Shown: piece after piece, positions 3,506-28,706 of the stretch
How the letters are laid out: each line of letters starts with the position of its first letter
Position numbering within the stretch: the first letter of the stretch is position 1
NCBI GenBank assembly: GCA_001399795.1
Contig: LIHK01000023.1
Span: forward strand, 6,916-70,915
Length of the DNA: 64,000 nucleotides
DNA from: Candidatus Bathyarchaeota archaeon BA2
Lineage (GTDB): Archaea > Thermoproteota > Bathyarchaeia > Bathyarchaeales > Bathyarchaeaceae
Direction of reading: 5' to 3'
Translations under genes and position numbers: made by a program
The notes under the pieces: generated by a model
What the model saw: only the letters and a program-made list of their open reading frames with translations
Database searches by the model: none
What the model was told of the DNA's origin: nothing

Positions 3506-5032
3506 TTAAGGTTTCCTCAGAATTACTAAGTTTTCCACCGGTGTTCTTCTGTCTTTAAGCTTCGTTGCTGGATTGATACGGTAGGAAAACATTCGGCGGG
3601 CTACTATAGTGTCTATTAGTGTACCCTCATGAACCCACCCCAACTCAACAAAATGTTCTGCAAAAATTCGGTCGATTGGAACAGGACGTCCCCTCATGCT
3701 TGCCCGACCTACAAAGAGGAATAGATAAGGGCTCACTTTTTCCTGTAAGCGGGTAAGTGCCCCAAGTACTCCCCAAAAATATCTGTCAAAGAGTTTTCGC
3801 ATATGGTTTTCTTCTATTTCGCCCCTCCAAGAAGAAAATGTTTCGGAATGCACGGGTTGTGGTTCCACATCCCTATAAGGAATTTCCAGCTTGCTCAGTT
3901 TTCTGACTTCATCCTCTGAGTGGCCCAACCAAAAAAGGTCCATTTTCGCTTGTCGGATATACTCGTGTGACTGTAAGTAAGGAGGAGAAGTGATGAGGAT
4001 ATCCTTTTCTTCTGTAAGGTTCATGCTTAAGGTATCGACCCCGCCCTTAACGATTGCCTCAGTTTGTTTAGGCGAAAGCATCCAATGGTCCTCTATCCTT
4101 TTTATGACCTTCTCCGTTTCTTGCTCTACCATTTTAAAGAATTTGGTCTTCCAATCGCAAGTCAACAGCAAATTAACTCGCTGTTCTGATTTTGGCGATT
4201 TAGAAAGCTTTTGCCTTTGCATGTCGTCATATGAGAAGTAACGTGTAGTTTTAACTAGAGGTATGGTTAGAAGGAGTTTAAGGTATTCATCATCCATAGA
4301 ATGGTAGAAGCCCCATACTCTATACAGAAGAGGTAGGAATTCTTGTGGAAACCAATAATAAAGTCTTGACCACTTTGGGACGAATTCTTCATTAGAAGTA
4401 GCCAATTGATGAAGAAGTTTCTTTACGTCTACTTTTTTTGGCTCCAATGTGGCAACACTATGCAACGTCTCTAGCAGTGGATTTAGGTCCCACAGTTCAT
4501 AATCATAGCCATAAATCCTTGATACAACACCAACCGTTCCACAACCAGCGAATGGGTCAAAGACCTTCATACAGGACTGGGCATAATTTTCTAAAACGTA
4601 AGCTATTACATGAGGAATAAACTTAGCAGGATATCTATAGAGACCAAACGTTGCATAAGTTGTGGAAGGAAGGTTTGCCAAATTGCGGAATAGAACTTTT
4701 CTCTCTTCTCCTAGCATTTTCTCTCTCGCGCCAAACAGACCTGTCTCACTTCTAGATTCGATTCTTAAAACAGCACTTTCCAATTTACTCGTAATTGGTT
4801 CAATTTGAAAACCTTGCTCACTCTTAACTAAGTGTACTTGATAACCAATAGGAAATTTTCCTTTCAAAAAAGGTGACCAGAGTCTCCCATATTTGTCAAG
4901 CCTTGCTGGATTGCCGTTCAGCGTAGTAACACATGGCAGAGGCGTATTGCCAATTAGTTCAGGTCTACTTTTTGTCGGGATACAAATAAATCCCTGAAGA
5001 ACCTCCATCTTTTTAAGAAACTTGCTTACCAT
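3506..5032 (-). CDS. DNA amino-methyltransferase (N4-cytosine or N6-adenine), alpha-type motif order
   Basis: SAM motif I (DPFAGCGTVG) lies about 190 aa upstream of catalytic motif IV (ILITSPPY). S-P-P-Y favours N4-cytosine. Confidence 0.85.
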   Translation of the reverse strand: MVSKFLKKMEVLQGFICIPTKSRPELIGNTPLPCVTTLNGNPARLDKYGRLWSPFLKGKFPIGYQVHLVKSEQGFQIEPITSKLESAVLRIESRSETGLFGAREKMLGEERKVLFRNLANLPSTTYATFGLYRYPAKFIPHVIAYVLENYAQSCMKVFDPFAGCGTVGVVSRIYGYDYELWDLNPLLETLHSVATLEPKKVDVKKLLHQLATSNEEFVPKWSRLYYWFPQEFLPLLYRVWGFYHSMDDEYLKLLLTIPLVKTTRYFSYDDMQRQKLSKSPKSEQRVNLLLTCDWKTKFFKMVEQETEKVIKRIEDHWMLSPKQTEAIVKGGVDTLSMNLTEEKDILITSPPYLQSHEYIRQAKMDLFWLGHSEDEVRKLSKLEIPYRDVEPQPVHSETFSSWRGEIEENHMRKLFDRYFWGVLGALTRLQEKVSPYLFLFVGRASMRGRPVPIDRIFAEHFVELGWVHEGTLIDTIVARRMFSYRINPATKLKDRRTPVENLVILRKP

Positions 5033-5221
5033 CTACGCCCTCTTCTCTAGTATTGTCTCCCTTTTAGTAAGTTTTTCTATATTTAAATTATTTATATTCG
5101 CAACATTTCCAAGCGCATTTCTGGTCACCGCTGCTTTTCTGTTAACTCGTATTAGCTGTCATTCACACAAAAAGATTTAAGAAACCGATGTCTCAGAATT
5201 GAAGGTGGCGGGGTAAACCGT

Positions 5222-5386
5222 AGCGAGAGAATTTATGCTCTCCTATATGGGTGGGGTAGCCAGGTGAACCCGCTGGGCTCATAAGCTTAGGCTGAGAGAC
5301 CCAGAGATAGCAGTCGCATTAGGCTGCCTCTAACGGTAGTTCAAAAGAAGGCGGAAAACCTTCTGAAACTCTACCCCCCGCTACCA
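5222..5386 (+). tRNA. initiator-type tRNA-Met (CAU) with four BHB introns and an encoded CCA
   Basis: Exons 5222-5225, 5249-5283, 5299-5308, 5334-5345 and 5370-5386 join to AGCGGGGTGGGGTAGCCAGGTGAACCCGCTGGGCTCATAACCCAGAGATCGGTAGTTCAAATCTACCCCCCGCTACCA, a perfect cloverleaf. Each intron folds as 3-nt bulge / 4-bp helix / 3-nt bulge. A1:U72 and G29-31:C39-41 are present. Confidence 0.85.
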
Positions 5387-5523
5387 TGTCATTTGCTTCT
5401 TTTTGGGCCTCTTCAACGAGGGAAATAACGATCATAACCTTTTTTGTCTTCATGAGATATTTCGGTTTTCCAGTTGACGGCAAGAACAACCGAGTGGTTT
5501 TAAGAAAAACTTTGGGATTCACG

Positions 5524-5736
5524 TTACTTTAAATTGGAATCGGAATCAGAATTATAGCTAGATTCCTCCTCTTCAAACTTTATCCTGTGAACATACCAAC
5601 AGTAATGATGCCTAACAGAGTCCTTGACAAAATCCGCAATACTGGCATAACCACACTCAGGATGCTCCCTAATCAACCGCTCCACAACTTCCAGCATTTT
5701 GGAAGGCAACTTCACAGTTCTGTACCGTCTATCCAT
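5524..5736 (-). CDS. ribbon-helix-helix (CopG-like) DNA-binding protein
   Basis: From the internal ATG at 5736 the protein reads MDRRYRTVKLPSKMLEVVERLIRE...GYASIADFVKDSVRHH, a beta-strand followed by two helices. The long form starting at 5790 is unlikely. Confidence 0.6.
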   Translation of the reverse strand: MDRRYRTVKLPSKMLEVVERLIREHPECGYASIADFVKDSVRHHYCWYVHRIKFEEEESSYNSDSDSNLK

Positions 5737-5860
5737 TGCGCTCCACAACCATGAGGATAAGCATGAGATAGAAGGTACGAAACATTTCAAATTTATGAGT
5801 AATCCATGACTCAGAATCCGAAGACGCCGACAGAAAGCTCGCGAAGCCTTAGTCTTTCAG

Positions 5861-6220
5861 TTAGCATGTTATATGGATTATTGCTCCCACACTTTCTCCT
5901 TCATCAACCAACTTGTTATACCTTTTTATCGCTTCGTAAGACGACAACTTAACGAGTTTTATTTCCTTCTGTTTCGCGAAGCTTTCGGCTTCAGTTGACA
6001 AACTTGCCAGATCGCTGGTTCTTGTGCCTATAACTATGATTTTGGCCCCGTCCTTGTAGAGTTTCTCCAATTCTTCTTTGCTGAAGGAGTGGCTTCCAAA
6101 CTTGTCGCGTTCGTTTGTTCTCGGCTTTAACTTTCCTTTTGGAGTTACAATTACGTCGTAATCGTATTCCTTTCCGTCAACCGTGATGGTGCCCCATTCT
6201 ATCGAATCAAAACGCGCCAT
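5861..6220 (-). CDS. Mth938-like domain protein (DUF498 family)
   Basis: 119 aa with WGTITVDGKEYDYDVIV at the N-terminus and HITC at the C-terminus, characteristic of the Mth938 family. Confidence 0.75.
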   Translation of the reverse strand: MARFDSIEWGTITVDGKEYDYDVIVTPKGKLKPRTNERDKFGSHSFSKEELEKLYKDGAKIIVIGTRTSDLASLSTEAESFAKQKEIKLVKLSSYEAIKRYNKLVDEGESVGAIIHITC

Positions 6221-6452
6221 ATGGCCACACCTCAGTCTCTTAGGTTGAAGACAATGTTATTTAGGGTTTTTCTTGCGAGAGTACAGCGTTAAACCAGAAT
6301 TTGCCTTTTGAACCGGAACACCTCAACTGCGCATGGACTAAATTCAATCATGTAATTAAAGGAAAGTTTGTTTTCCAGCCGACGTCTCCAAAAAGTTTGG
6401 AATCGGAGTTTAGCGTACGCGGGATAAAAAATAGGGAAATAATACGAAATTT

Positions 6453-7040
6453 TTAGGGTTTAATTTTGGTTCCAAGGATTTCAAGAAATTTCTTCATCCA
6501 TTCTGGGTGACCGGGCCATGCCGCTGCCGTAACGAGATTTCCATCTACACATGCGCTTGTGAAAGTCTCATTCGGCTGGGCCCACTCAGCCTCTGCACTA
6601 ATGATGTCTGGCTTAACTGCGGGGTAAGCCATACACTTCTTTCCTTTCAGCACGTTGGCCGCTGCAAGAACTTGAGGACCATGACAGATTGCGGCTATTG
6701 GTTTCTTTCTTTCAGCGAAATGCCTAACGATTTCAAGAACTCTTTCGTTCAGCCTAATATATTCTGGTGCCCTACCTCCTGGTATCACCAATCCATCGTA
6801 ATCTTCAGGATCAATTTTTTCAAAATCAATTGTGATCGCGAAGTTGTGACCTACCTTTTCGCTGTACGTCTGCTCACCTGTAAAGTCATGCACGGCTGTT
6901 TTGACGGAATCCCCAAGTTTCTTGCCAGGGCATGCCGCGTCGACCTCGTGCCCAACCATCTTCAGCATCTGATAAGGAACCATCGCCTCATAATCTTCGA
7001 CGAAATCCCCAACTAAGACCAAAATCTTCTTAGTTGACAC
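6453..7040 (-). CDS. DJ-1/PfpI family protein (intracellular protease/glyoxalase type)
   Basis: 195 aa. The nucleophile elbow AAICHGPQVL is followed by a conserved His region. Confidence 0.85.
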   Translation of the reverse strand: MSTKKILVLVGDFVEDYEAMVPYQMLKMVGHEVDAACPGKKLGDSVKTAVHDFTGEQTYSEKVGHNFAITIDFEKIDPEDYDGLVIPGGRAPEYIRLNERVLEIVRHFAERKKPIAAICHGPQVLAAANVLKGKKCMAYPAVKPDIISAEAEWAQPNETFTSACVDGNLVTAAAWPGHPEWMKKFLEILGTKIKP

Positions 7041-7208
7041 GTCCCCTCACCTACCTCTTTTTTTCTTTATTTTTCTTTATTTTTATTTATTTAATTTTTT
7101 CATTTTTGGTCTAGCGCGCGAAGAGTTTTTATATGGAACTTTGTTTCGGATACGATTATGTCTAATCAAAGTCTTATATACTAACCGCAATCATATTTTG
7201 GAAATTGA

Positions 7209-7415
7209 ATGGGAGGAAAGTGTATGACCGAAGTGGTGGAGAAGGAACTAAGAAAAATGGGAATAACTGTTTCAAAGCCTGTCTTAGCAATAATATGCAT
7301 CGTATTCGGGACGCTCGTCATAGTGTTTAAAGACCTTCTACAATGGATAGTTGGACTATTCCTAATAATCCAAGGAGTACTGGTGTTAACGGACTATCTC
7401 GAACTGAGAAAATAA
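7209..7415 (+). CDS. small two-TM membrane protein
   Basis: 68 aa with two hydrophobic helices, preceded by a T-rich region and a TTTTTATATGG TATA-like box. Confidence 0.5.
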   Translation: MGGKCMTEVVEKELRKMGITVSKPVLAIICIVFGTLVIVFKDLLQWIVGLFLIIQGVLVLTDYLELRK

Positions 7416-7446
7416 CCAGAACTAAACTTTGCCTGCTCCTCAGCAA

Positions 7447-8130
7447 CTATTTTGTAAACTTCGTCTTTACTTGGTGACGATGTTCCAACTCCTCGAAGAT
7501 TCCTCTGAGCTTAAAGCCTTTCTGAGCGAAAAGCACTAGAACGTGGAAGAGTATGTCTGCGGCTTCATGTACAATCTCTTTAGGACGGTTATCTTTTGTT
7601 GCAAGAATGAGTTCAACCGTTTCCTCATCTATCTTCTGAAGAACAGCGTCTTCTCCCTTCGCAGTTAACTTGGAAACATAAGATTTCTCAGTAGGATTTC
7701 TGATTCTATCCATTATAACCTCGAAGATTCTTTCAACAATCTTCGCGTCAACCGCACGTTTCTCTTCGGCAATTACTGGCTTGTAAAAGCACGTTTCTTG
7801 GCCGGTGTGGCAAACGGCTCCAATCTGTTGAACCTTAAAGAGAATTGCATCATTGTCGCAGTCTATAATCGCGTTCTGCAGCAGAGAGTGGTGCCCAGAC
7901 TCCTCGCCCTTAAGCCATATCCTCCCGCGGCTTCGACTCCAATAGTGCATTTTACCGCTTTTCAAAGTCAACCGTAGGGCTTCCTCATTCATGAAGGCTT
8001 GCATCAAAACCTTGTCATTTGAAGCGTCTTGAACGACCACTGGAACAAGCCCATCAGCCTTTTCAAAGTCCACTTTCTTGACGAAATCTTCAACTTCTGT
8101 TTCACTTAACTGCAAGACCAAGTTTTCCAC
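7447..8130 (-). CDS. hisIE: bifunctional phosphoribosyl-AMP cyclohydrolase / phosphoribosyl-ATP pyrophosphatase
   Basis: The HisI core (YWSRSRGRIWLKGEESGH...CDNDAILFKV...CHTG) is fused to a HisE helical C-terminus (EAADILFHVLVL). Confidence 0.9.
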   Translation of the reverse strand: MENLVLQLSETEVEDFVKKVDFEKADGLVPVVVQDASNDKVLMQAFMNEEALRLTLKSGKMHYWSRSRGRIWLKGEESGHHSLLQNAIIDCDNDAILFKVQQIGAVCHTGQETCFYKPVIAEEKRAVDAKIVERIFEVIMDRIRNPTEKSYVSKLTAKGEDAVLQKIDEETVELILATKDNRPKEIVHEAADILFHVLVLFAQKGFKLRGIFEELEHRHQVKTKFTK

Positions 8131-8138
8131 CTCCCTGA

Positions 8139-8948
8139 CTAGACGAGACGTACAGGCACTCCTCTTTGGGCAAGATACTCCTTAACCTCCATAACCGAGC
8201 ATTGGGACCGGTGGAAGATGGAGGCAGCTAGGGCAGCGTCAGCTTTGCCAGCAGTTAAAACCTCGTAAATGTGCTCAAGGTTTCCAGCGCCTCCGCTCGC
8301 AATTACCGGCAAATTTGTTGCTTCGCTTATGGATTTTGTCAATGGAATGTCGTAGCCATCCTGAGTTCCGTCATAGTCCATGCTGGTTGGCAGAAGTTCT
8401 CCGGCGCCCAGTTCTTTCACGGCCTTAGCCCAAGATATGGCGTCCATTCCGGTGGGTACTCTTCCCCCCTCAACGTAGACTTCAAACCAACACTTCCCCT
8501 CGGCAGTATCCACAACCGTCTTGTCTGGAACGGCTTTTTCCACGTAAACCCTCTTAGCGTCGATGGCAACCACGATGCATTGGCTGCCAAAAATTTCAGC
8601 CGCCTTCTTTACGAGTTCGGGTTCCCTCACAGCCGCGGTGTTTACGGAAACTTTGTCTGCGCCAGCTGAAAGCACATTTTTGATGTCAGCGATACTTCTG
8701 ATGCCTCCGCCCACGGTGAAGGGAATAGACACCACATCTGCGGTTCTTTTCACAACATCCAGCAGGGTGCCCCTTTTCTCGTAGGAGGCTGTTATGTCGA
8801 GGAAAACCAGCTCATCTGCTCCTTGCTCCTCGTAAATCGCTGCAAGCTTTGCTGGGTCTCCTTCAATTTTCAAATTTACGAACTGCACGCCCTTGACAAC
8901 TTTTCCATCCTTGACGTCTAGACAGGGAATTATTCTTTTAGCCAACAC
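8139..8948 (-). CDS. hisF: imidazole glycerol phosphate synthase, cyclase subunit
   Basis: [20 protein letters not shown]...VFLDI...GGGI...ASGGAG is a full-length HisF barrel. Confidence 0.95.
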
Positions 8949-16530: not shown

Positions 16531-17163
16531 ATGAGATCAGTAGGTCGGCTGGAATCAAGTTTATCTGAAATTGTGAACACCGTTAAAACGGTGGATGGCG
16601 TCGTGGGAATAATTCTCTTCGGCAGTGTTGCAAGGGGGGAGGCTGATGAGGGATCAGACATCGATTTGCTTGTCCTTTTTGAGGATGAGGATAAGATGCG
16701 GATGAACGAGTGGGAGGTCACTCGTCGCATACCTCCTAACCTGTTTACTCAATCGATTTGTGCGTGCGCTTCAACCCTCAAGATGATGAATCCTGTCTTT
16801 CTCCAATCGGTGCTAGAGGAAGGACTGATCCTCTATGCGCAGTACCCGCTAGTGTTAAGGTCTCGCCTGGCCAACGCTGTTGTTTGCTTCATAGTGACAT
16901 ACTCGCTAGAGGAACTGCCTCAAAGGGAAAAGAAGAGGGTTAACTACAAATTGTTTGGGAGAAGGATGGCAGAGCGTCGGTACCTCGGGCTTGTTGAGGA
17001 ACGCGGTGGAAGACATCTTGGAAGGGGATGCTTCCTCATTCCGAAGGAAAACGCAGAAGTTGTTCTAAACGTTTTGAACGAACATAATGTAAAATATGAG
17101 TCTATAGAAGTGTACATTCCAAACAAAGCACAGGTTGGCACCCCGGCATTTCTCCAACTTTAG
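16531..17163 (+). CDS. nucleotidyltransferase-domain protein (Pol-beta superfamily) with an uncharacterised C-terminal domain
   Basis: The NTase signature is ILFGSVARGEADEGSDIDLLVLF. The roughly 100-aa C-terminal half has no motif I can name. Confidence 0.7.
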   Translation: MRSVGRLESSLSEIVNTVKTVDGVVGIILFGSVARGEADEGSDIDLLVLFEDEDKMRMNEWEVTRRIPPNLFTQSICACASTLKMMNPVFLQSVLEEGLILYAQYPLVLRSRLANAVVCFIVTYSLEELPQREKKRVNYKLFGRRMAERRYLGLVEERGGRHLGRGCFLIPKENAEVVLNVLNEHNVKYESIEVYIPNKAQVGTPAFLQL

Positions 17164-19852: not shown

Positions 19853-19862
19853 TCTTGCAAGA
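19853..19862. promoter_or_regulatory. 10-bp perfect palindrome TCTTGCAAGA abutting the NrdD-like gene start
   Basis: Seen directly in the sequence. It is followed by a duplicated CTTATAT (19866-19880) in the divergent intergenic region. Confidence 0.25.
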
Positions 19863-19990
19863 AGTTCTTATATGCTTATATACTTATTGGTCCTTGGCTG
19901 AGAATAATCCATATTTCATGAAGCAATTCTTAAAAAATTACAAGAAGATTTATTTTTCTCGCAAAAAAGGACAATCATGGGTGGAACAGA

Positions 19991-20359
19991 ATGTCTCAGT
20001 CAAAAGAGGATAGAAAGGCACCTCCTAGCGAGACGGATAAATTTTTCTGGGAGGACGACCCAGCCAGAACGTTGCATGTGCCTGCAGCATCCAAAACAAT
20101 CTCTGGGTCAAGCAAAACCATGTTTGATGTAGGAAAAATGTTGGAGAATATAAAGAATGAGGCAACAGATCCTGAAGAGCGTGAGATATGCCTAAAAGTG
20201 GCTGAGAAATGGTTTTCCGATGCTGTTGGAGTACCTACACATGTAGTTCCTATCGAGATAGGTACAGATGGGACATCAGAAAAATATACCCGAGGAGCCG
20301 CTGTCGTGGTTCCTCTAGTCATTCAAAGAGTTAACCCCCTAGTCTTCTCATACTCGTAA
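19991..20359 (+). CDS. hypothetical protein, probably the N-terminal part of one gene continuing at 20335-21147
   Basis: 122-aa ORF. Adding one C to the C5 run at 20335-20339 would fuse it in frame to the next ORF. Confidence 0.45.
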   Translation: MSQSKEDRKAPPSETDKFFWEDDPARTLHVPAASKTISGSSKTMFDVGKMLENIKNEATDPEEREICLKVAEKWFSDAVGVPTHVVPIEIGTDGTSEKYTRGAAVVVPLVIQRVNPLVFSYS

Positions 20360-20424
20360 CCCCTCGCTATGGCAAGTCTGCTCAAAGATTTCTTCATGAG
20401 AGGAAACTGAGCGAGGAAGAAGTC

Positions 20425-21147
20425 TTGGAAATCCATGACACCCTTGTTCGATACGCGTTAGTCTTGGCGACGGACACGTTCGATGGAGACAGACCTTCAA
20501 GAGCTTTTATGGATTATTACAATAAGGCTGAAAGTAGAATGGAGGGGATCAGGCAAACCAATTGGAAGCTGAAAGAAGGTGAAATAGCCCCTCCTGAACT
20601 CCTTCTCAAGGACTTCATCGTAAACGGCGTTAAAGTCCAGAAGTTAATCGATCTCATTCATCAGGCTAAGCGATCTGTACCTTCATACTTACAACCGTAC
20701 CGCTTTACACAACATGGAGACGAGTATCCGGGCAACCTTTTCATGGTGATAATACCCGTCACCACTGATCCCTTCTCGCGTATAAGAAAGTGGAAATTGT
20801 CGGACTTTGACAATCTGACGACCTCTGCCATTAGAGGTATTGAGATATACGGAGAAGAGGGGAAAATTAACGAAATCAACTATAACTATAAGTCGGTCGT
20901 CAGAGAGGATCTTAAAGAGGCCACAGAAAGGGCACTCAACGAACTAAAAAAGTGGGCCAGTCTTCATGGTGATAAACACTTTGAGGTTCGGTTTTACTAC
21001 TTTCTAGGCTTAGTCCAGATATGTGTTGCTGCTAAAATTAACGACCCTACCCTCTGCAAAATTCTCCTAGCTGAAGGGAGCAAGAATCTACATTATTTCG
21101 TCAATGAATCCGAAAAAGGAAAGAATAAGCGAGGTGTTGAGGGTTGA
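20425..21147 (+). CDS. hypothetical protein (frame open from 20335 but without a canonical start there)
   Basis: 240-aa ORF. The upstream in-frame sequence PPSLLILVTPRYGKSAQRFLHERKLSEEEV looks coding. The stop overlaps the next gene's start. Confidence 0.55.
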   Translation: MEIHDTLVRYALVLATDTFDGDRPSRAFMDYYNKAESRMEGIRQTNWKLKEGEIAPPELLLKDFIVNGVKVQKLIDLIHQAKRSVPSYLQPYRFTQHGDEYPGNLFMVIIPVTTDPFSRIRKWKLSDFDNLTTSAIRGIEIYGEEGKINEINYNYKSVVREDLKEATERALNELKKWASLHGDKHFEVRFYYFLGLVQICVAAKINDPTLCKILLAEGSKNLHYFVNESEKGKNKRGVEG

Positions 21148-21566
21148 AAGTTTACTATAAGCGATTAGTCATTCCCACAACGAGCCGGCTGGATGAAGTG
21201 GACATTACTGACCACACGCAACATGAAGTGCAAAAAAGTGAGGTGCAAAACGGTATGGCTTTCATTTTTGTTCCACACAACGGAGCCGCTCTAACCATCA
21301 ATGAGCATCAAAAAGAAATATGGAACGACAGCTGGAGATGCTATCAAACTTGGGCCCCTCTCGATGGTAACTATGAACATCATAGGACATGGGGTGGAAT
21401 GGAAAAGAACGGCATGGCTCACGTTCTTTCGAATTTCATGGCGAAATCCATTCCTCTCTTGATCCTTAACGGCAGGCTTAGGCTAGGGACATGGCAGCAG
21501 CTGCTGTTGTGGGAGATGGATGGACCAAGAGAACGTCAGGTGGACGTCATGGTGATGGGGGAATGA
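21144..21566 (+). CDS. YjbQ/UPF0047 family protein (secondary thiamine-phosphate synthase family), paralogue 1
   Basis: LDEVDITD...NGMAFIFVPHNGAALTINE...GTWQQLLLWEMDGPRERQV matches the family layout. The TTG start overlaps the upstream stop. Confidence 0.8.
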   Translation: MKVYYKRLVIPTTSRLDEVDITDHTQHEVQKSEVQNGMAFIFVPHNGAALTINEHQKEIWNDSWRCYQTWAPLDGNYEHHRTWGGMEKNGMAHVLSNFMAKSIPLLILNGRLRLGTWQQLLLWEMDGPRERQVDVMVMGE

Positions 21567-22735
21567 GAGCCGTCATCTTTGATCTCGATGGAACTCTGTA
21601 TAAAAGTGCCAAATTGAGCTCAGACATCTGGAGAAATCTTGTTAAGGTGGTTGCGGAAGAACTTGGAATATCGGAAGAGAAGGCCTCTGAATTCATCATC
21701 AAGGGAAAGAAGCGGCACCTCACCGTAACCAGAACTGTAGAGGCTATGGGGATCTCAAGGATTAGATTGTATGAGAGGTTAGCTAAATCTGTTAACCCTT
21801 CAGAATATTTAAATTTAGACCCTCGGCTCCAGTCCCTTGTCGATGAGCTGCACGACAAGGGATATAAGGTTGCCGTGGCAACGGACTCCGGTAGATCCTT
21901 AGCTGTTAAGATCCTCGACGCGATAGGGATTTTAAATAAGCTAGACTCAGTAGCCACCAGTTCCGAGGCTGCACCGAAGCCGGAGCCAAACATCTACCTC
22001 TATGCCCTAAGTAAGTTAAATATTTGGCCTAACCAGGCTGTTTATGTAGGAGACCGCTTGGAAGAGGCTAGAGGAGCTAAACAAGCCGGTCTCTCTACGC
22101 TCTTACTCTCCAAACTTCCAGTTGATAGTCCTTGGGTTGATTTCACCATCAGGGACTTAAACCAGCTACCTAAAATCTTGGAACATCACACTCCGTTCAT
22201 CATGACCATATCTAGCGACGGATTTCTGGACTCATCTGGTTTTAAAGGTATAACTCGACTCGAAACCAGACTAGAGGACGTATACCAAGAATTTCAAGAT
22301 CGGGACTATGTAGAGAAGTTATTACGAAAGGGACAAAACCCCATTATTAGAGTGAGGGAAAGGATTAATTTAAAGGGAGAGGGCCTGCTCAAGCTTTCAG
22401 TTCAGGCGATTTCATCGGGGAAGATCGGGAAAGAATATTTCTTAACTCCTCTACACGTCCATGACAAAAGCGAATTGATGGTGGGGATATCGGGAAAGGG
22501 GTTGGTTCTGCTACAATGTGGAGAATTAGCTGACTTGAAGCGCCTTGAAAGAGGAAAGTTGGTATACATTCCTCCTCGTTGGGCACACAGATGCATTAAC
22601 ATAGGCAACGAGAGGTTCGTCTACATAGCTATTTACGATTCTGAGATAAGGAAAAGCTACGGCATGAAACCCATCTACACAGCGATAGAGGGCGAAGATG
22701 GTAAGCCCAAGCTGATCCATGTGGAAGATGAGTAG
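21563..22735 (+). CDS. fusion of a HAD phosphatase domain and a cupin-type phosphoglucose-isomerase-like domain
   Basis: MRAVIFDLDGTLY (HAD motif I) and YVGDRLEEARGA lie in the N-terminal half. LHVHDKSE...VYIPPRWAHRCINIGNERFVYIAIY (archaeal cupin PGI signature) lies in the C-terminal half. The start forms an ATGA overlap with the upstream stop. Confidence 0.75.
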   Translation: MRAVIFDLDGTLYKSAKLSSDIWRNLVKVVAEELGISEEKASEFIIKGKKRHLTVTRTVEAMGISRIRLYERLAKSVNPSEYLNLDPRLQSLVDELHDKGYKVAVATDSGRSLAVKILDAIGILNKLDSVATSSEAAPKPEPNIYLYALSKLNIWPNQAVYVGDRLEEARGAKQAGLSTLLLSKLPVDSPWVDFTIRDLNQLPKILEHHTPFIMTISSDGFLDSSGFKGITRLETRLEDVYQEFQDRDYVEKLLRKGQNPIIRVRERINLKGEGLLKLSVQAISSGKIGKEYFLTPLHVHDKSELMVGISGKGLVLLQCGELADLKRLERGKLVYIPPRWAHRCINIGNERFVYIAIYDSEIRKSYGMKPIYTAIEGEDGKPKLIHVEDE

Positions 22736-22736
22736 A

Positions 22737-23162
22737 ATGAAAATTTTTAATCTCTCCATACATAGTAGAAAGCAGAGAGAACTAATTGACATAACTGACT
22801 ATGTTGAATCGATTATCCGTGAGAGTCGGATTACAAACGGGCTAGTTATCATCACCACACTACACGTGACAGCTGGAATCCTGATTAACGAATACGAGGA
22901 TAAACTGAAATGGGACATTCTCAATAAACTCACTGCCTTGTGCGCATCTCGCTCATACCGTCACCACCGTTATCACTACGAAGATGGTAGGCCAGCGGTT
23001 AATGCTCCATCCCATCTGGCCGTTATCTTAGCCAGCCAGCCAAGTGTAGCCCTGTTGATAGAAAACGGGTCTTTGCTTTTATCTAGGAGGCAAAGGATCA
23101 TGCTCTTAGAAGCCGATGGGCCTAAAGAGAGAAGTCTCAAAGTCCGTGTGGTCGAAGAGTGA
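22737..23162 (+). CDS. YjbQ/UPF0047 family protein, paralogue 2
   Basis: MKIFNLSIHSRKQRELIDITD...NGLVIITTLHVTAGILINE...LLEADGPKERSL. The ATG lies 1 nt after the upstream stop. Confidence 0.8.
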   Translation: MKIFNLSIHSRKQRELIDITDYVESIIRESRITNGLVIITTLHVTAGILINEYEDKLKWDILNKLTALCASRSYRHHRYHYEDGRPAVNAPSHLAVILASQPSVALLIENGSLLLSRRQRIMLLEADGPKERSLKVRVVEE

Positions 23163-24036
23163 AAAGTTACAGTGTGGTGATCATTTGATAGACATCCATG
23201 TCCATCCGTTTCTTCTGAAGGAGCTAACGGAAAAGCGCCCAGAGCTTTTAGAGGGTACCAAGGCATACTTGGGCATAAAGATTTCACCTCAACCGTTGGA
23301 GACACTAGTGAGACAGATGGAAGTAGCTGGAGTCGTCAAGGCTGTCTTGCTTGCCTTAGACCTCACATCCAAGTTAGGATGTAAGCTACCATCCAACGAG
23401 GAGGTAGCTGAGCTGGTTAGGATGGACCCAGACAGGTTCATTGGGTTTGCTAGTGTTGATCCTTTGCAGGGTCAAGAGGCTGCGAGACAATTGGAACATG
23501 CTATTAACGAACTAGGCTTAAGAGGTCTGAAGCTACATCCACCACTTCAAGATTTTGAACCCTCTGACCCAAAGTTGAGACCCGTGTTCAAAAAGTCTGA
23601 AGAATTAGAGATTCCTATTCTAGCTCATACCGGAATGACTTGGCAAAGGAGTTGTATATTAGAGCTCAGTCATCCGATGCTATGGGATAAAGTAGCTATG
23701 GATTTTCCAGATCTAAAAATAATCCTAGCACATTGTGGATGGCCTTGGGCGTGGGACGCAGCAGTGTTAGCAATGCGACATCCAAACGTCTATCTGGATA
23801 TAGCTAACACCTACACTGGAACGCCCTCCGAACACCTGTCTTTAATATTAACAGAAATGATGCCGAAGAGAATTGTAGAACGATTTCTAGCAGATAAACT
23901 ACTGTTTGGATCAGATTTCCCGTATATCGAGTTACATAAGATGGCCGAGTCTGTAAAGAAGTTGCCCATAGCAGATGAAGTCAAACTGCAGATTCTAGAA
24001 ACAAACGCATCTAAGCTACTTGGGTTGTTATTATAG
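23116..24036 (+). CDS. amidohydrolase-2 family metal-dependent hydrolase (TIM barrel)
   Basis: IDIHVHPF (HxH), ILAHCGWPW and GSDFPY metal-ligand motifs are present. The start is uncertain: the annotated ATG overlaps the upstream gene by 47 nt. Confidence 0.75.
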   Translation: MGLKREVSKSVWSKSEKLQCGDHLIDIHVHPFLLKELTEKRPELLEGTKAYLGIKISPQPLETLVRQMEVAGVVKAVLLALDLTSKLGCKLPSNEEVAELVRMDPDRFIGFASVDPLQGQEAARQLEHAINELGLRGLKLHPPLQDFEPSDPKLRPVFKKSEELEIPILAHTGMTWQRSCILELSHPMLWDKVAMDFPDLKIILAHCGWPWAWDAAVLAMRHPNVYLDIANTYTGTPSEHLSLILTEMMPKRIVERFLADKLLFGSDFPYIELHKMAESVKKLPIADEVKLQILETNASKLLGLLL

Positions 24037-24171: not shown

Positions 24172-24323
24172 AAGATGAAACGACTGTTCCATTGTCAAAC
24201 TGAATAGGGTATTCGAGAATCTTACTCGAAACATTATTTGAAAAAAGCGCGCGCGATTAATTCGGAATGTTGAAAACATAAAGTTTATATAACGCTTGAG
24301 TGTCTCACTGTTTAGGTGTTTAT

Positions 24324-24563
24324 ATGTCTAAGCGTACAACCATCCTGCTTGATAAGGAACTCTACGAGGAACTTGTGAAGGAAAGTTTAAGAAGATACGG
24401 AACTGTTAAAGCTCTATCTAAAGTTTTGAATTCAATATTGTTGGAGACTTTTAAAGGTAAGAGAGAGATGCTAAGGTTAATCTACTCAGAAAAAGCTGCG
24501 AAAACAACATGTGAGGAGTTTGAAAAGTTTCGGAGAGAACTGTCAAGAAGGCTAGAATCCTGA
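24324..24563 (+). CDS. VapB-type antitoxin (small DNA-binding protein)
   Basis: MSKRTTILLDKELYEELVKE begins at the ATG at 24324. The gene lies immediately upstream of the PIN gene, and its stop overlaps the PIN reading frame. Confidence 0.55.
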   Translation: MSKRTTILLDKELYEELVKESLRRYGTVKALSKVLNSILLETFKGKREMLRLIYSEKAAKTTCEEFEKFRRELSRRLES

Positions 24564-24583
24564 TCCTAGACACTACTTATCTT

Positions 24584-24988
24584 TTGCCTCTTGCTAGAAT
24601 TGAGATAGACGTGGATCTTCTAAGGGCCGTAGCTGACGGCAAAGTTGACTTAAAACTGGAAGACATAACCGTTAATACTATTTCGCTTTTTGAGCTCCAG
24701 GCAAAGGCCGCAAAGTTAAAAGTGCCAGCGAACTTTGTGATCGAAGCTATAGAGGCAATTCTCAAAACCTTCAAGATAGAGCAATTCCACAAGCCAAAAA
24801 TTATAGAGGTTGCTAGCGAAATAAGAAATATGCTGCCAGATTACATCGACTGCGTTATAGTTGCAACCGCGGTTTCGCTGAAGAATGATTTATTAACGGA
24901 GGACTCTTTAATACTATCCAGAAGAGGACCAATTAAGCAAAAGTATGGGATAAAAATATCAAAATTTTCAGAGTTTGTTGGAAAATGA
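24584..24988 (+). CDS. PIN-domain ribonuclease (VapC-like toxin)
   Basis: LFELQAK and DCVIVATAVSLKNDLLTEDS supply acidic residues. The first PIN aspartate (LILDTTYLLP) is encoded at 24560-24583, upstream of the first canonical start codon. Confidence 0.7.
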   Translation: MPLARIEIDVDLLRAVADGKVDLKLEDITVNTISLFELQAKAAKLKVPANFVIEAIEAILKTFKIEQFHKPKIIEVASEIRNMLPDYIDCVIVATAVSLKNDLLTEDSLILSRRGPIKQKYGIKISKFSEFVGK

Positions 24989-25730: not shown

Positions 25731-28706
25731 CTAGAGTGAGGTTTGTTTTCGTTTTTTCCAGAGGATTGTTGTAACTGCTATTCCTATTGCTGCGATTGCG
25801 GCTGCTGCTCCTATGATCCACATGGGGAAGGCTTCGGTCGGAGGTGGAGGAGGCGCTTCTGCTGGAAGAACCGTTACGGTTATCGAGTGGGTTGCAGTGT
25901 TTCCTGCTGCGTCTTTAACAGTCAGAGTTACTGTGTAGTTCCCCGGACTTGTGTATGTGTGGGTTGCCGTGATGCCAGTTCCTGTTGTTCCGTCTCCGAA
26001 ATTCCATTCGTAGCTGACTATGCCCACGTTGTCGTTGGAGGCGCCAGCGTCAAAAGTCACAGCGACGCCGACATTTACTGTTTGGTCATCTCCAGCGTCA
26101 GCGATAGGTCTGGTCTGATCCAGTATGATAAAATCACTTTCGGGTTTTGAATATAGTCCGGCGTTGTCTCTATAGAGCACATGAATGTCTTTGCTTCCTT
26201 CTCCGATTGTCAAGAACGTCCATGATTTGAAGGTGGTGTATGGCTCCCACGCTGTCCATATAGTGTGTGTACCGTTAGATTCTGCGAGACACATCTGAGC
26301 AACGCCAGAGGTGGCGTCTTCTGCTGAGAGTGTTAGAATCACTGTTGACGAGTTTGTGTAGGTTGTGCCTCCCGCGATTGTAATAGAACCAGCTGGCGGG
26401 ACGGTGTCCAGAATAATCGTAGCTGAGTATGTGGATATTAGCCCGGCACGGTCTTTGATTTGGTAGTAGACTGTTTTTGGGCCGTCTCCGTCTTGTAGGA
26501 TCCAGGCCTTGCTTAGCGAGAAAGTTTCCCATGGTTCAGTATCCCATACACCATCGTTGCTATACCTGACCTCGGAAACACCTGAGAATAGGTCATTTGC
26601 GATTAGGTTTAGCGTCACTGAGGCTGAAGTTGTATAGGCATTACTATTGTTGATTATGATTGAGCCCGTCGGAGCAGTCTTATCGATTTTCATTGTTTGG
26701 AACTTGGCTGTTTCTGGGTTGCCCCCTTTGTCTGTTGATTTGTAATAGACTGTGGTGGTTCCTTCGTCGGTGATGGTGAAAGTTGTTGTAAAGGTGATCC
26801 AGGTGGCGTTGTCAAAGCTGTATTCTGTTTTGTCAACTCCTGAGATATCGTCTGAGGCTGACAGGGTCACAGTGACATCTGAAGTGAACCAACCGTTGCT
26901 GCCAGGCACGCCGCTTAGACTAATAGTGGTTGTTGGTGGTTTAGAGTCTGGCGGCGTCACCGTAGCGGTTTTTGTTTCGCTTTCTGCTGGACATGTGTTT
27001 TCGTCGCCTTGCCAGCTGGCTTTGATTTCGTATGTGCCTATTTCTATTGTTGCCCATAGGTAGGTGTAGTGGCTGTTTGAGTCTGTTTTGACCGTGGCCA
27101 GTGTGGTCCATGTTCCGCCGGAAAGTCGATAGAAAATTGTTACATTAATGTCAACACGAGCAGGTGTGATAGTTCCGTTTATGGTCACGTCGGAGCCAAC
27201 AGTTACTGTAGAAGGGGTTACGTTGACTGTAATGATGCTGCTTGCTTTCTCGATTGTTACGGACTTTGTGATGCTGTGGGTAAATCCATCATTGTCTGTC
27301 ACTGTTAGGTTTATTGTATACGTGCCAGCTACTGCATAGAAGTGTTTTATTATCGGGGTCGTTACGGTTGCAACGTTACCATCGCTGAAATCCCACCGAT
27401 ATTCAACAATAGTGCCATATAGGTCATAGCTGGCTGAAGCATCAAAGGTAATAGTTTCGCCTACGAGTGGAAACTCTGGTGAGTAGCTGAAATCAGCTAT
27501 TGGAGGAACCGGAACCCATGGATTCATGAGTGGATATTGGTCTCTATTGTTTGCATCAATAACGTATGGTGTATCGCCTATGCCATCGCTTCGAGGCTGA
27601 TCTTGGTTAGGTCCGCTCCTCTCATCAATGCCTGTGTAGTCGCTCCAATGGTTGCCGCCTGAAGGATAACCATCATCCCATAAGTTAAGAGGAGCAGCTT
27701 CTCCATAGTATAAAGAGACTTGCCGTGTGTTGTTGATGAAGTTGTTATGATAAATTTTGTTGTTATATGAATCGCTGAGCCCGATGCCCAAGCCGCTTTT
27801 TGTTACGTTGTTTCCAGAGATGATGTTGTTGGTGGAGTGGTAGCAGAGATAGATGCCATAGTTGCTGCTTGTTATTTTGTTTTTGGAAATGATATTGTTG
27901 GAGGAATGCATACCAAGAGAGATGCTGATGCCCAATCCATTGTTTATGGTGTTGTTATGAATTAGGTTATATTTAGAGCTCGTAAGGACTATACTATATC
28001 CGCTGTTGTTTATGGTGTTGTCCTTTATGGTGGAGCCCGAGCCGCCTATGAAGATGCCTGATCCATTGTTTATGGTGTTGCCGATAATAATGCTGTTGCT
28101 CCCGCCACTGATACCACAAGAATTTTCCAAAGTGTTGTCACGTATGATGTTATTGCCACCTGCCGAGATGCCATACCGATTGTTTGCTATAATATTATCA
28201 TACACAATATTGTTGTGCGGGTTATAATCCTTCATGCCATCTACCCAGTGCGCGGTTGTGATAATTGCGATGGCAGAGCCTTTGTTGTTAGTTATAGTGT
28301 TGTCATGTATTGTATTGCTGTGAGAATATCTTATCTCGATACCTGCATCAACACTCCCGGTCATGTTCGTTACGAAATTGCCATATATGGAATTGTGGCT
28401 TATGATGTTATACGGACTCCCGCTAATATCAGCGCCTTCCCATCCATTTCGCAAGGTGAATCCGGTTAAGGTAACATTATTTGCCGAAATTGTAACTACA
28501 GTGCCAGTTCCGCCTCCGTCAATTATAGTGGTCTCTGTATTCTCTCCAATAAGCGTCAAAGTTTTGTTCACAAGGATGTTTTCGTAGTATGTTCCGTTGT
28601 ATACGTATATGGTGTCTCCTGGACTGGCCGCGTTTATGGCTTCCTGTATTTTCGAAAAGTCTGCTGATCCATCATCATCCACAGTCCACGCTCTGGTGAA
28701 AGCCAA
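25731..28706 (-). CDS. large cell-surface protein: right-handed beta-helix (NosD/CASH-like) repeats, PKD/Ig-like domains, Pro-rich linker and C-terminal TM anchor
   Basis: Repeated NN(I/T)ISxN beta-helix rungs, several FDASAS...DG PKD signatures, and the ending PPPPPTEAFPMWIIGAAAAIAAIGIAVTTILWKKRK. This ORF carries no signal peptide. Confidence 0.8.
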   Translation of the reverse strand: MAFTRAWTVDDDGSADFSKIQEAINAASPGDTIYVYNGTYYENILVNKTLTLIGENTETTIIDGGGTGTVVTISANNVTLTGFTLRNGWEGADISGSPYNIISHNSIYGNFVTNMTGSVDAGIEIRYSHSNTIHDNTITNNKGSAIAIITTAHWVDGMKDYNPHNNIVYDNIIANNRYGISAGGNNIIRDNTLENSCGISGGSNSIIIGNTINNGSGIFIGGSGSTIKDNTINNSGYSIVLTSSKYNLIHNNTINNGLGISISLGMHSSNNIISKNKITSSNYGIYLCYHSTNNIISGNNVTKSGLGIGLSDSYNNKIYHNNFINNTRQVSLYYGEAAPLNLWDDGYPSGGNHWSDYTGIDERSGPNQDQPRSDGIGDTPYVIDANNRDQYPLMNPWVPVPPIADFSYSPEFPLVGETITFDASASYDLYGTIVEYRWDFSDGNVATVTTPIIKHFYAVAGTYTINLTVTDNDGFTHSITKSVTIEKASSIITVNVTPSTVTVGSDVTINGTITPARVDINVTIFYRLSGGTWTTLATVKTDSNSHYTYLWATIEIGTYEIKASWQGDENTCPAESETKTATVTPPDSKPPTTTISLSGVPGSNGWFTSDVTVTLSASDDISGVDKTEYSFDNATWITFTTTFTITDEGTTTVYYKSTDKGGNPETAKFQTMKIDKTAPTGSIIINNSNAYTTSASVTLNLIANDLFSGVSEVRYSNDGVWDTEPWETFSLSKAWILQDGDGPKTVYYQIKDRAGLISTYSATIILDTVPPAGSITIAGGTTYTNSSTVILTLSAEDATSGVAQMCLAESNGTHTIWTAWEPYTTFKSWTFLTIGEGSKDIHVLYRDNAGLYSKPESDFIILDQTRPIADAGDDQTVNVGVAVTFDAGASNDNVGIVSYEWNFGDGTTGTGITATHTYTSPGNYTVTLTVKDAAGNTATHSITVTVLPAEAPPPPPTEAFPMWIIGAAAAIAAIGIAVTTILWKKRKQTSL

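Follow-up and report, generated by a model that had tools for sequence, protein, structure and literature searches.

Among described routes of sugar-phosphate conversion, the tagatose route of Escherichia coli combines a hexokinase, phosphoglucose isomerase (PGI), a 4-epimerase of the GatZ/KbaZ type and a HAD phosphatase; GatZ/KbaZ has fructose-6-phosphate to tagatose-6-phosphate 4-epimerase activity (PMC11907403). A HAD domain fused to a PGI-type cupin is encoded in a 64,000-nucleotide (nt) stretch of the genome of Candidatus Bathyarchaeota archaeon BA2 (contig LIHK01000023.1; the window hereafter), within a plus-strand gene cluster that also comprises a first gene of an orphan family, two YjbQ/UPF0047 genes on either side of the fusion gene (YjbQ1 and YjbQ2), and an amidohydrolase gene (Table 1). 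This unit, one disrupted first gene followed by four intact ones, is very probably a genuine, conserved and translationally coupled archaeal operon. The interpretation developed here as a whole, that of a rare cassette for the conversion of a sugar phosphate (most probably one of a hexose), has about an even chance of being right; the sugar phosphates as the substrate class are, taken by themselves, fairly probable because of the active-site residues of the cupin, a variant of the fusion that carries a GatZ domain, and the genomic contexts of the nearest relatives.

Four independent cassette contexts were compared: the BA2 window, the loci L003 and L004 (taken together), and the loci L008 and L009. 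L003 and L004 carry an intact orphan gene of 414 amino acids (aa), YjbQ, HAD-cupin, YjbQ and Amidohydro_2 genes, in the same order as in BA2 and with the same ATGA overlap and short spacers. Protein identity between BA2 and L003 ranges from 51 to 83% (~54% for the first gene, 70-83% for the other four), and the ratio of nonsynonymous to synonymous divergence (dN/dS) from 0.09 to 0.26. In L008 the orphan protein P0051 is followed by YjbQ and by an 827-aa fusion of HAD, GPI-cupin and GatZ_KbaZ-like domains; in L009 the orphan protein P0052 is followed by a YjbQ open reading frame (ORF; PF01894, E = 8e-21) and by a 219-aa HAD protein that is 31% identical to the window HAD. The order orphan-YjbQ-HAD is the same in all four known contexts of the orphan family, with the cupin fused to HAD in three of them, and the conserved core of the cassette therefore consists of the orphan protein, YjbQ and HAD; YjbQ2 and the amidohydrolase, the latter encoded only in the BA2/L003 version, are to judge from this comparison additions of that lineage. 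The linkage is, on the evidence of these loci, specific, and the stand-alone relatives of YjbQ, cupin and HAD that were examined lack the partner genes. The two uncharacterised 292-aa proteins of L008 and L009 are mutually unrelated. An earlier note on this DNA, made from its letters and ORFs alone, had read the genes as one unit and had proposed a neighbourhood analysis as a check; order and junctions recur in L003/L004 and the core in L008 and L009, so that orphan, YjbQ and HAD genes are linked wherever the orphan family was found.

The superfamilies are individually well known, and it is the fusion and the combination that appear, from the searches made, to be very rare. A search for close relatives of the HAD-cupin fusion among 5.8 billion proteins returned a single full-length one, the L003 protein P0002 (70% identity). 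The same note had called the fusion and the gene combination unfamiliar, and the cassette occurs in only four places in public data; in the literature, no description was found of a HAD-PGI cupin fusion, of its GatZ-extended form, of the orphan family, or of a fixed YjbQ linkage. As a separate observation on the history of the unit, synonymous divergence (dS) between window positions 19991-24036 and L003 positions 3590-7735 is ~1.5-1.6 or has reached saturation in the first gene and in YjbQ1, and lies at 0.54-0.69 in the three genes after them (fusion, YjbQ2, amidohydrolase); this unevenness suggests a recombination breakpoint or different histories of the two operon halves.

The ORFs and three of the four junctions that had been claimed are confirmed by the ORF list and by direct reading of the sequence: a TTG at 21144 overlaps the TGA at 21145-21147, an ATGA spans 21563-21566, and a TAG at 22733-22735 is followed by an ATG at 22737, with 1 nt between them. 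The fourth, a 47-nt overlap of 23116 and 23162, was not upheld. The longest amidohydrolase ORF runs from ATG 23116; the L003 orthologue starts at the homologous TTG just before IDIHVHPF, with stop codons just upstream, and TTG 23185 is therefore the most likely start of the BA2 amidohydrolase, which puts 22 nt between it and the YjbQ2 stop. Junction spacings are accordingly -4, -4, +1 and +22 nt in BA2; in L003, YjbQ1 overlaps the first gene (by 17 nt, counted from its favoured start, GTG 4818), and the following spacings are -4, +4 and +23 nt. The assignments of the two YjbQ/UPF0047 proteins, the fusion and the Amidohydro_2 enzyme agree with Pfam and NCBIfam matches. TATA-like stretches were assigned by eye on both strands of the divergent intergenic region upstream of the operon (19853-19990); a scan for bacterial-type promoters and terminators found 9 sites against 8.5 expected, which is uninformative in an archaeal host. 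G+C content around the operon is even (~0.41-0.46), and neither tRNA genes nor Rfam matches were found across the window.

Both domains of the fusion protein score well above their Pfam cut-offs, at ~89 bits for HAD_2/Hydrolase (HAD_2 88.7, cut-off 23.8) and 48.5 bits for GPI PF06560 (cut-off 20.7). The HAD domain contains FDLDGTL (motif I, DxDxT), KPEP (the motif III Lys), GDRLEE (the motif IV acidic pair) and a C1 cap, and matches TIGR01509 and TIGR01549 above their cut-offs; it falls far below the cut-off of every curated equivalog model (for example, 69 vs. 189 bits for beta-phosphoglucomutase), and therefore no specific substrate can be transferred to it. The cupin aligns to the cupin-type PGI (cPGI) of Pyrococcus furiosus (2GC0/1X7N; E = 2e-22, residues 17-163 of 189) and keeps all four metal ligands of that enzyme, His88, His90, Glu97 and His136 (HVHDKSE and WAHR, vs. 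GHFH...AE and WAHR); these ligands are also conserved in P0002 and in the L008 fusion. The motif PPxWAHRxxNxG, Thr85, Tyr152 and Tyr160 are kept as well; together with Thr71, Gly87 and His158, the last three residues are the substrate contacts of the P. furiosus enzyme. A metagenome scan with the linker and cupin yielded 28 cPGI-like cupins, all of them stand-alone and none beside a YjbQ, HAD or orphan gene; the nearest adjoin FGGY or ROK sugar kinases, a sugar transporter, a SIS protein and dehydrogenases, and this pattern of a kinase plus a cupin isomerase is paralleled by the orphan gene upstream of the fusion. Four of the nearest stand-alone HAD relatives adjoin neither YjbQ nor the orphan gene; the nearest stand-alone HADs are found beside GH113 glycosidases, a cellulase, and rmlA/rmlC. 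RmlA uses glucose-1-phosphate, and the latter neighbourhood is thus a hint of a mutase role. In the loci L050 and L051, a stand-alone HAD 39% identical to the window HAD is encoded divergently from an rmlA-rmlC-rmlB-like dTDP-sugar cluster, a placement that would agree with a phosphohexomutase function of this HAD clade.

The two YjbQ proteins match Pfam UPF0047 (PF01894) over their full length, with 101.7 bits for YjbQ1 and 86.5 bits for YjbQ2 (cut-off 27), and TIGR00149 with 103.7 and 83.9 bits (cut-off 67.75); they are 29% identical to each other. His45, Glu54, Asn89 and His93 (YjbQ1 numbering), among other residues, are invariant in six cassette YjbQ sequences, both window paralogues included, and the closest solved structure is that of ST2072 from Sulfolobus tokodaii (E = 2e-23). 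Seven YjbQ loci obtained from species-representative genomes by a scan for the YjbQ1 subtype have no kinase-like, HAD or cupin neighbours. The YjbQ ORF of L009 (2279-2650, plus strand; 123 aa, GTG start), located between the genes for P0052 and the HAD protein, had been overlooked by the gene caller; its C-terminus is ~13 residues shorter than in other YjbQ proteins, and the usual DGPR motif is absent. The Protein Data Bank (PDB) holds nine distinct solved YjbQ/UPF0047 sequences, all deposited as hypothetical or uncharacterised proteins, and TIGR00149 bears the family name "secondary thiamine-phosphate synthase"; such an activity was reportedly tied to the YjbQ family by Morett et al. in 2008. 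The amidohydrolase matches PF04909 over its full length (147.3 bits, cut-off 26.4), with an N-terminal HxH in DIHVHP and GSDFP near the C-terminus; its best solved relative is the uncharacterised protein BB4693 (3IRS; E = 1e-24), followed by COG2159 decarboxylases.

The orphan protein, about 400 aa long, is represented by only four sequence clusters in ~15 billion predicted proteins. An exhaustive HMMER search with the family profile against 1.84 billion cluster representatives found the 414-aa L003 protein (P0048), the window fragments, P0051 (E = 3e-9) and P0052 (E = 1e-6), and none else; a further word-indexed homologue search with the four-sequence profile added no new members. The homology search that the earlier note had recommended for this protein thus returned three relatives and no Pfam, NCBIfam or PDB match; at E <= 10, Pfam and NCBIfam gave noise-level matches only, one to the aminoglycoside phosphotransferase family (APH; E = 0.23) included. 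D243, N248, D270 and N273 are nevertheless invariant in four members that are only ~22% identical, and they are located in HGDEYPGNL...SDFDN of the window protein and HGDPYLENI...VDTTN of P0051. Kinases of the aminoglycoside-phosphotransferase type have HGDxxxxN with a downstream DFD as the signature of their catalytic loop and Mg-binding site. The pattern H[GN]DxxxxN[hydrophobic] has three matches in 846 background ORFs (188,068 residues): two are the window protein and P0051, and the third is the bona fide E. coli kinase SrkA. Along the orphan protein, with APH-like spacing, a GxGxxG-like loop comes first, then a conserved basic residue and a segment resembling a hinge, and finally the catalytic loop and, after it, DFD; a non-significant hhalign alignment pairs these motifs with those of NPTII. 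A small-molecule kinase of the aminoglycoside-phosphotransferase or protein-kinase-like type is the most likely single explanation of these motifs, at somewhat better than even chances, and is not established. The earlier statement that the protein contains no recognisable motif can be refined by the kinase-type HGDxxxxN...DFD, a reading that no statistical test confirmed.

If the orphan protein is a kinase, it would phosphorylate a sugar in the first step of the cassette; YjbQ would act on the phosphorylated intermediate, and the cupin domain would interconvert aldose and ketose phosphate, with a 4-epimerase-type domain added in L008. The HAD domain would finally remove the phosphate or, in the manner of beta-phosphoglucomutase, shift it between C1 and C6; both the direction of this flow and the step catalysed by YjbQ are what we infer from gene order and domain content. 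The COG2159-type amidohydrolase, which BA2 and L003 have in addition to the second YjbQ, could contribute the step of a lactonase, decarboxylase or hydrolase. Phosphorylation at the anomeric position is frequent among kinases of the protein-kinase-like fold (NahK, MtnK, maltokinase), and this habit would favour a route from a 1-kinase through a mutase and an isomerase into fructose-6-phosphate; a sequence from galactose through galactose-1-phosphate, galactose-6-phosphate and tagatose-6-phosphate to fructose-6-phosphate is a candidate route that would fit the L008 fusion. A more far-reaching variant, in which the rare kinase family cooperates with YjbQ on a sugar and YjbQ catalyses an undiscovered sugar-phosphate step between phosphorylation and the isomerase/HAD, would amount to a new pathway; this is a tentative possibility, to be placed well short of even.

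Several observations weigh against the sugar-phosphate cassette with its kinase. The sole Pfam match of P0051, to APH (E = 0.23), is at the level of noise matches, and the orphan-family profile retrieved nothing from the PDB sequences at E <= 10, while P0051 alone gave only a noise match. Comparison by hhalign with six bona fide kinases (NPTII, APH(3')-IIIa, hygromycin phosphotransferase, and YniA, SrkA and YcbJ of E. coli) gave P = 0.12-0.73, the same as for unrelated controls; an HMMER (hmmsearch) run of the orphan family against kinase sequences likewise gave no signal above controls. AlphaFold2 models of P0048 (3-row alignment) and P0051 (5-row alignment) have a mean predicted local confidence (pLDDT) of 35-36. 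The putative beta-3 position is occupied by Arg, not Lys, in three of the four orphan members, and the His of the motif is replaced by Gln in two. No role can be assigned to YjbQ. By alignment reading, the cupin differs from the P. furiosus enzyme in Thr71 to Gln, Gly87 to Leu and His158 to Lys, and the changes at Thr71 and Gly87 imply that the substrate may not be glucose-6-phosphate. In L003, motif IV of the HAD domain (P0002, 5237-6430) reads VGNRLEQE vs. VGDRLEE in BA2, with the Mg-binding Asp replaced by Asn; the L003 HAD domain may thus be weakened, while in BA2 the first gene is broken. The sample is small, with only four independent contexts, all of them metagenomic, and nucleotide-related genes adjoin the cassette in three of the four, a feature that a sugar-phosphate function leaves unexplained.

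These neighbours are the starting point of a competing explanation, a module for nucleotide or deoxyribose salvage or repair that in BA2 would be controlled by the divergent protein with a winged helix-turn-helix (wHTH) and an NrdD-like region; the orphan kinase would act on a nucleoside or pentose, HAD would be a nucleotidase, and the cupin a pentose-phosphate isomerase. Upstream of the operon, a gap of 138 bp, confirmed as previously described, separates it from the NrdD-like gene on the opposite strand; the protein combines an N-terminal winged-helix region, with weak FUR and MCM_C matches, and an NrdD-like barrel, its NRDD Pfam match ends at profile position 500/562, the protein itself terminates in ...KIIPHER, and its best PDB match reaches only E = 5e-6 over ~100 residues. 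The unmatched C-terminal part of the NRDD profile is where the glycyl-radical region is to be expected. In L009, a 208-aa C-terminal fragment of a class II ribonucleotide reductase (266-892; PF02867, E = 2e-37) is encoded directly upstream of the cassette, and in L008 an HD/HD_assoc_2 (dNTPase-like) protein is encoded downstream (7022-8341); the HAD domain also has sub-threshold matches to pyrimidine 5'-nucleotidase and YjjG models. The three nucleotide-related neighbours nevertheless differ in family, position and orientation, and may be a coincidence or a real link. The NrdD-like gene was rejected as a conserved partner since it is absent from the other three contexts, including L003, the only close relative (there, a MazE-like gene and a second Amidohydro_2 gene are located upstream of the operon), and the proposal that it controls the unit is not sustained for the same reason. 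Moreover, the cupin belongs specifically to a hexose-6-phosphate isomerase family, the L008 fusion includes a ketohexose-6-phosphate epimerase-type domain, and the nearest stand-alone cupin and HAD relatives reside in carbohydrate clusters, so that nucleotide salvage is improbable. From the earlier alternative of "a sugar phosphate or nucleotide-derived metabolite", the former is retained on account of the cupin residues, the GatZ fusion and the contexts of the relatives, and the latter is rated low. Still less probable, to the point of being quite remote, is a salvage of thiamin or its pyrimidine moiety, in which the kinase would yield a phosphorylated thiazole or hydroxymethylpyrimidine, YjbQ would be the thiamin-phosphate synthase, and HAD would dephosphorylate thiamin monophosphate. 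Thiamin-phosphate synthesis is the sole activity in the YjbQ family name (TIGR00149), and the order kinase-synthase-phosphatase would mirror the logic of thiamin salvage; yet this activity is weak and secondary, a 2026 preprint still gives yjbQ no clear function, no thi genes are found nearby in any of the contexts, and both the fusion of a cPGI-type isomerase to HAD in three of four contexts and the GatZ-like domain would be left without explanation.

Returning to the sugar-phosphate cassette, its completeness in BA2 depends on the first gene. Frame 2 of this gene closes at 20359, and frame 1 opens at 20335, exactly on a run of five C residues (C5); frame 1 is homologous to P0048 from 20350 onwards, ahead of the earliest codon at which it could start (TTG 20425), and both ORFs are therefore pieces of one gene. 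In a DNA alignment with L003, 29 + 44 = 73 nt are absent from BA2 at the C5 site, at the cost of 24 residues and of a frameshift; a further in-frame gap takes away 25 residues, and the three other family members all retain both segments. The first gene has a dN of 0.31-0.38 against L003, vs. 0.10-0.17 for the other four genes. The region 19853-24036 is identical in assembly GCA_002509245.1 and in the Logan assembly of SRR5036703, so that the C5 sequence is the same in three assemblies including the window; a mere assembly error or homopolymer miscount, which was considered as the cause of the split, was rejected in view of this identity and of the 73-nt loss. The earlier observation that the split falls at the C5 run is exact, and its attribution to the assembly is not supported. 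It is also conceivable that the gene is intact in the living organism, through a true C6 or through -1 ribosomal slippage, with a full-length 385-aa protein and a fully functional operon; one added C indeed restores a single 385-aa frame that aligns lengthwise with P0048, tRNA-Pro on CCC could re-pair in the -1 frame on the C5 run, and a dN/dS of ~0.26 in the N-terminal part indicates purifying selection over most of the divergence. The C5 run is, however, identical in all three assemblies, the net loss of 73 nt accounts for the frame change by itself, and a repaired protein would still lack the 24 and 25 residues kept in all three relatives. If the fold is that of a kinase, the two segments missing from the BA2 copy would be the equivalents of alpha-C/beta-4 and of a core helix in the C-lobe. 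An intact gene is thus unlikely, and with two conserved segments missing and the frame shifted, the copy in BA2 has probably become a pseudogene recently; in BA2, the cassette would then be decaying, or be running without its first step.

Table 1. Features of the BA2 operon and its divergent neighbour (positions refer to the window).
Feature	Position	Strand	Remarks
wHTH + NrdD-like protein, 724 aa	17678..19852	-	divergent neighbour; absent beside the cassette in L003, L008 and L009
Intergenic region, 138 bp	19853..19990	.	divergent, AT-rich; between NrdD-like gene and operon
ORFs of the unit	19991-20359, 20425-21147, 21144-21566, 21563-22735, 22737-23162, 23116-24036	+	from the ORF list
Shine-Dalgarno-like GGTGG	6 nt upstream of ATG 19991		
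Orphan gene, N-terminal fragment	19991..20359	+	122-aa ORF; matches residues 22-91 of intact 414-aa P0048
C5 run	20335..20339	+	frame-change point and net 73-nt deletion site vs. L003 orthologue
Orphan gene, C-terminal fragment	20350..21147	+	contains HGDEYPGNL and LSDFDN; lacks a 25-aa segment found in all relatives
Shine-Dalgarno-like GAGGTG	7 nt upstream of TTG 21144		
YjbQ1, 140 aa, UPF0047	21144..21566	+	"HNGAA...HHxTWGG" subtype; TTG start overlaps upstream stop
Shine-Dalgarno-like GGTGAT	6 nt upstream of ATG 21563		
HAD-cupin fusion, 390 aa	21563..22735	+	HAD-IA ~21563-22111; cPGI-type cupin ~22241-22666
YjbQ2, 141 aa	22737..23162	+	diverged paralogue; canonical "HVTAG" motif
Shine-Dalgarno-like GGTGAT	3 nt upstream of TTG 23185		
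Amidohydro_2 (PF04909, COG2159-type) metal hydrolase or decarboxylase	23185..24036	+	probable start TTG 23185 (MIDIHVHPF...)

The surroundings of the operon contain further genes of a different kind. A nucleotidyltransferase (NTP_transf_2/Polbeta) protein of toxin-antitoxin-like character is encoded upstream (16531-17163, plus strand). Downstream (24300-24988, plus strand), an 87-aa ORF precedes the gene of a PIN-domain protein, and these too are toxin-antitoxin-like; together with the MazE-like gene in L003, these flanks fit a variable genomic region. Farther downstream (25731-28706, minus strand), the annotation of assembly GCA_002509245.1 predicts a surface protein of 991 aa that contains beta-helix/NosD repeats and PKD domains and is anchored by a C-terminal transmembrane segment.

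If YjbQ has the proposed role, UPF0047, which occurs in all three domains of life, would gain its first physiological function from the cassette, together with a first clue that YjbQ proteins work on sugar phosphates; the fixed three-gene order gives YjbQ a testable biochemical setting, with sugar phosphates as a small panel of substrates and defined partner proteins. The orphan proteins would constitute a new kinase family if the motifs have been read correctly. Where the metabolism of BA2 is reconstructed, the gene that bears the annotation "glucose-6-phosphate isomerase" should be treated as a predicted bifunctional fusion within a partly decayed operon, and not as a plain glycolytic PGI. 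The HAD-cPGI and HAD-cPGI-GatZ fusions would represent natural one-polypeptide forms of the cascades that have been engineered for rare-sugar production.

Compared with known protein families one by one, each component of the cassette combines familiar and divergent features. Both window YjbQ genes are full-length members of the YjbQ/UPF0047 family (structures 1VE0, 1VPH, 2P6C, 1VMJ) above curated thresholds; on the divergent side, one operon holds two diverged paralogues, and the YjbQ1 subtype, in which HNGAA replaces the usual H-T-T-A motif and an HHxTWGG insert is present, is shared only by the L003 and L008 cassettes. The fusion cupin has the His-His-Glu-His site in common with the cPGIs of P. 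furiosus and Thermococcus litoralis (1X7N, 2GC0, 1J3P); unlike these enzymes (identity ~30-35%), it lacks three residues between HxH and the Glu ligand, lies behind a HAD domain and, in L008, also ahead of a GatZ-like domain, and is encoded in an operon with YjbQ instead of glycolytic genes. With the HAD-IA phosphatases and beta-phosphoglucomutase (TIGR02253, TIGR01990; 4YGQ, 2YY6, 1LVH), the HAD domain shares motifs and cap at E values of 1e-29 to 1e-19; it differs in its fusion to an isomerase, and phosphatase and mutase are indistinguishable by sequence. The orphan protein resembles the small-molecule kinases of protein-kinase-like fold (APH PF01636, fructosamine kinase, methylthioribose kinase, N-acetylhexosamine 1-kinase, SrkA/YniA) in HGDxxxxN, DFD/DxxN, a glycine-rich N-terminal loop and motif spacing, and differs from them in a longer hairpin between Asn and DFD and in having no significant sequence, profile or structural match. 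The amidohydrolase shares the full PF04909 match and the HxH with COG2159 proteins (BB4693 3IRS, LigW, ACMSD, gamma-resorcylate decarboxylase), whose characterised members use aromatic carboxylates or lactones, substrates with no obvious tie to the rest of the operon. Among complete routes, the E. coli tagatose route (PMC11907403) provides the following comparison: the families of its isomerase, 4-epimerase and phosphatase are united in one L008 polypeptide with a kinase-like gene before it, and two of these domain families in the BA2 and L003 fusions; in contrast to that route, the kinase candidate of the cassette belongs to an orphan family, the YjbQ and Amidohydro_2 proteins are without counterpart, and the activities of the cassette are predicted ones.

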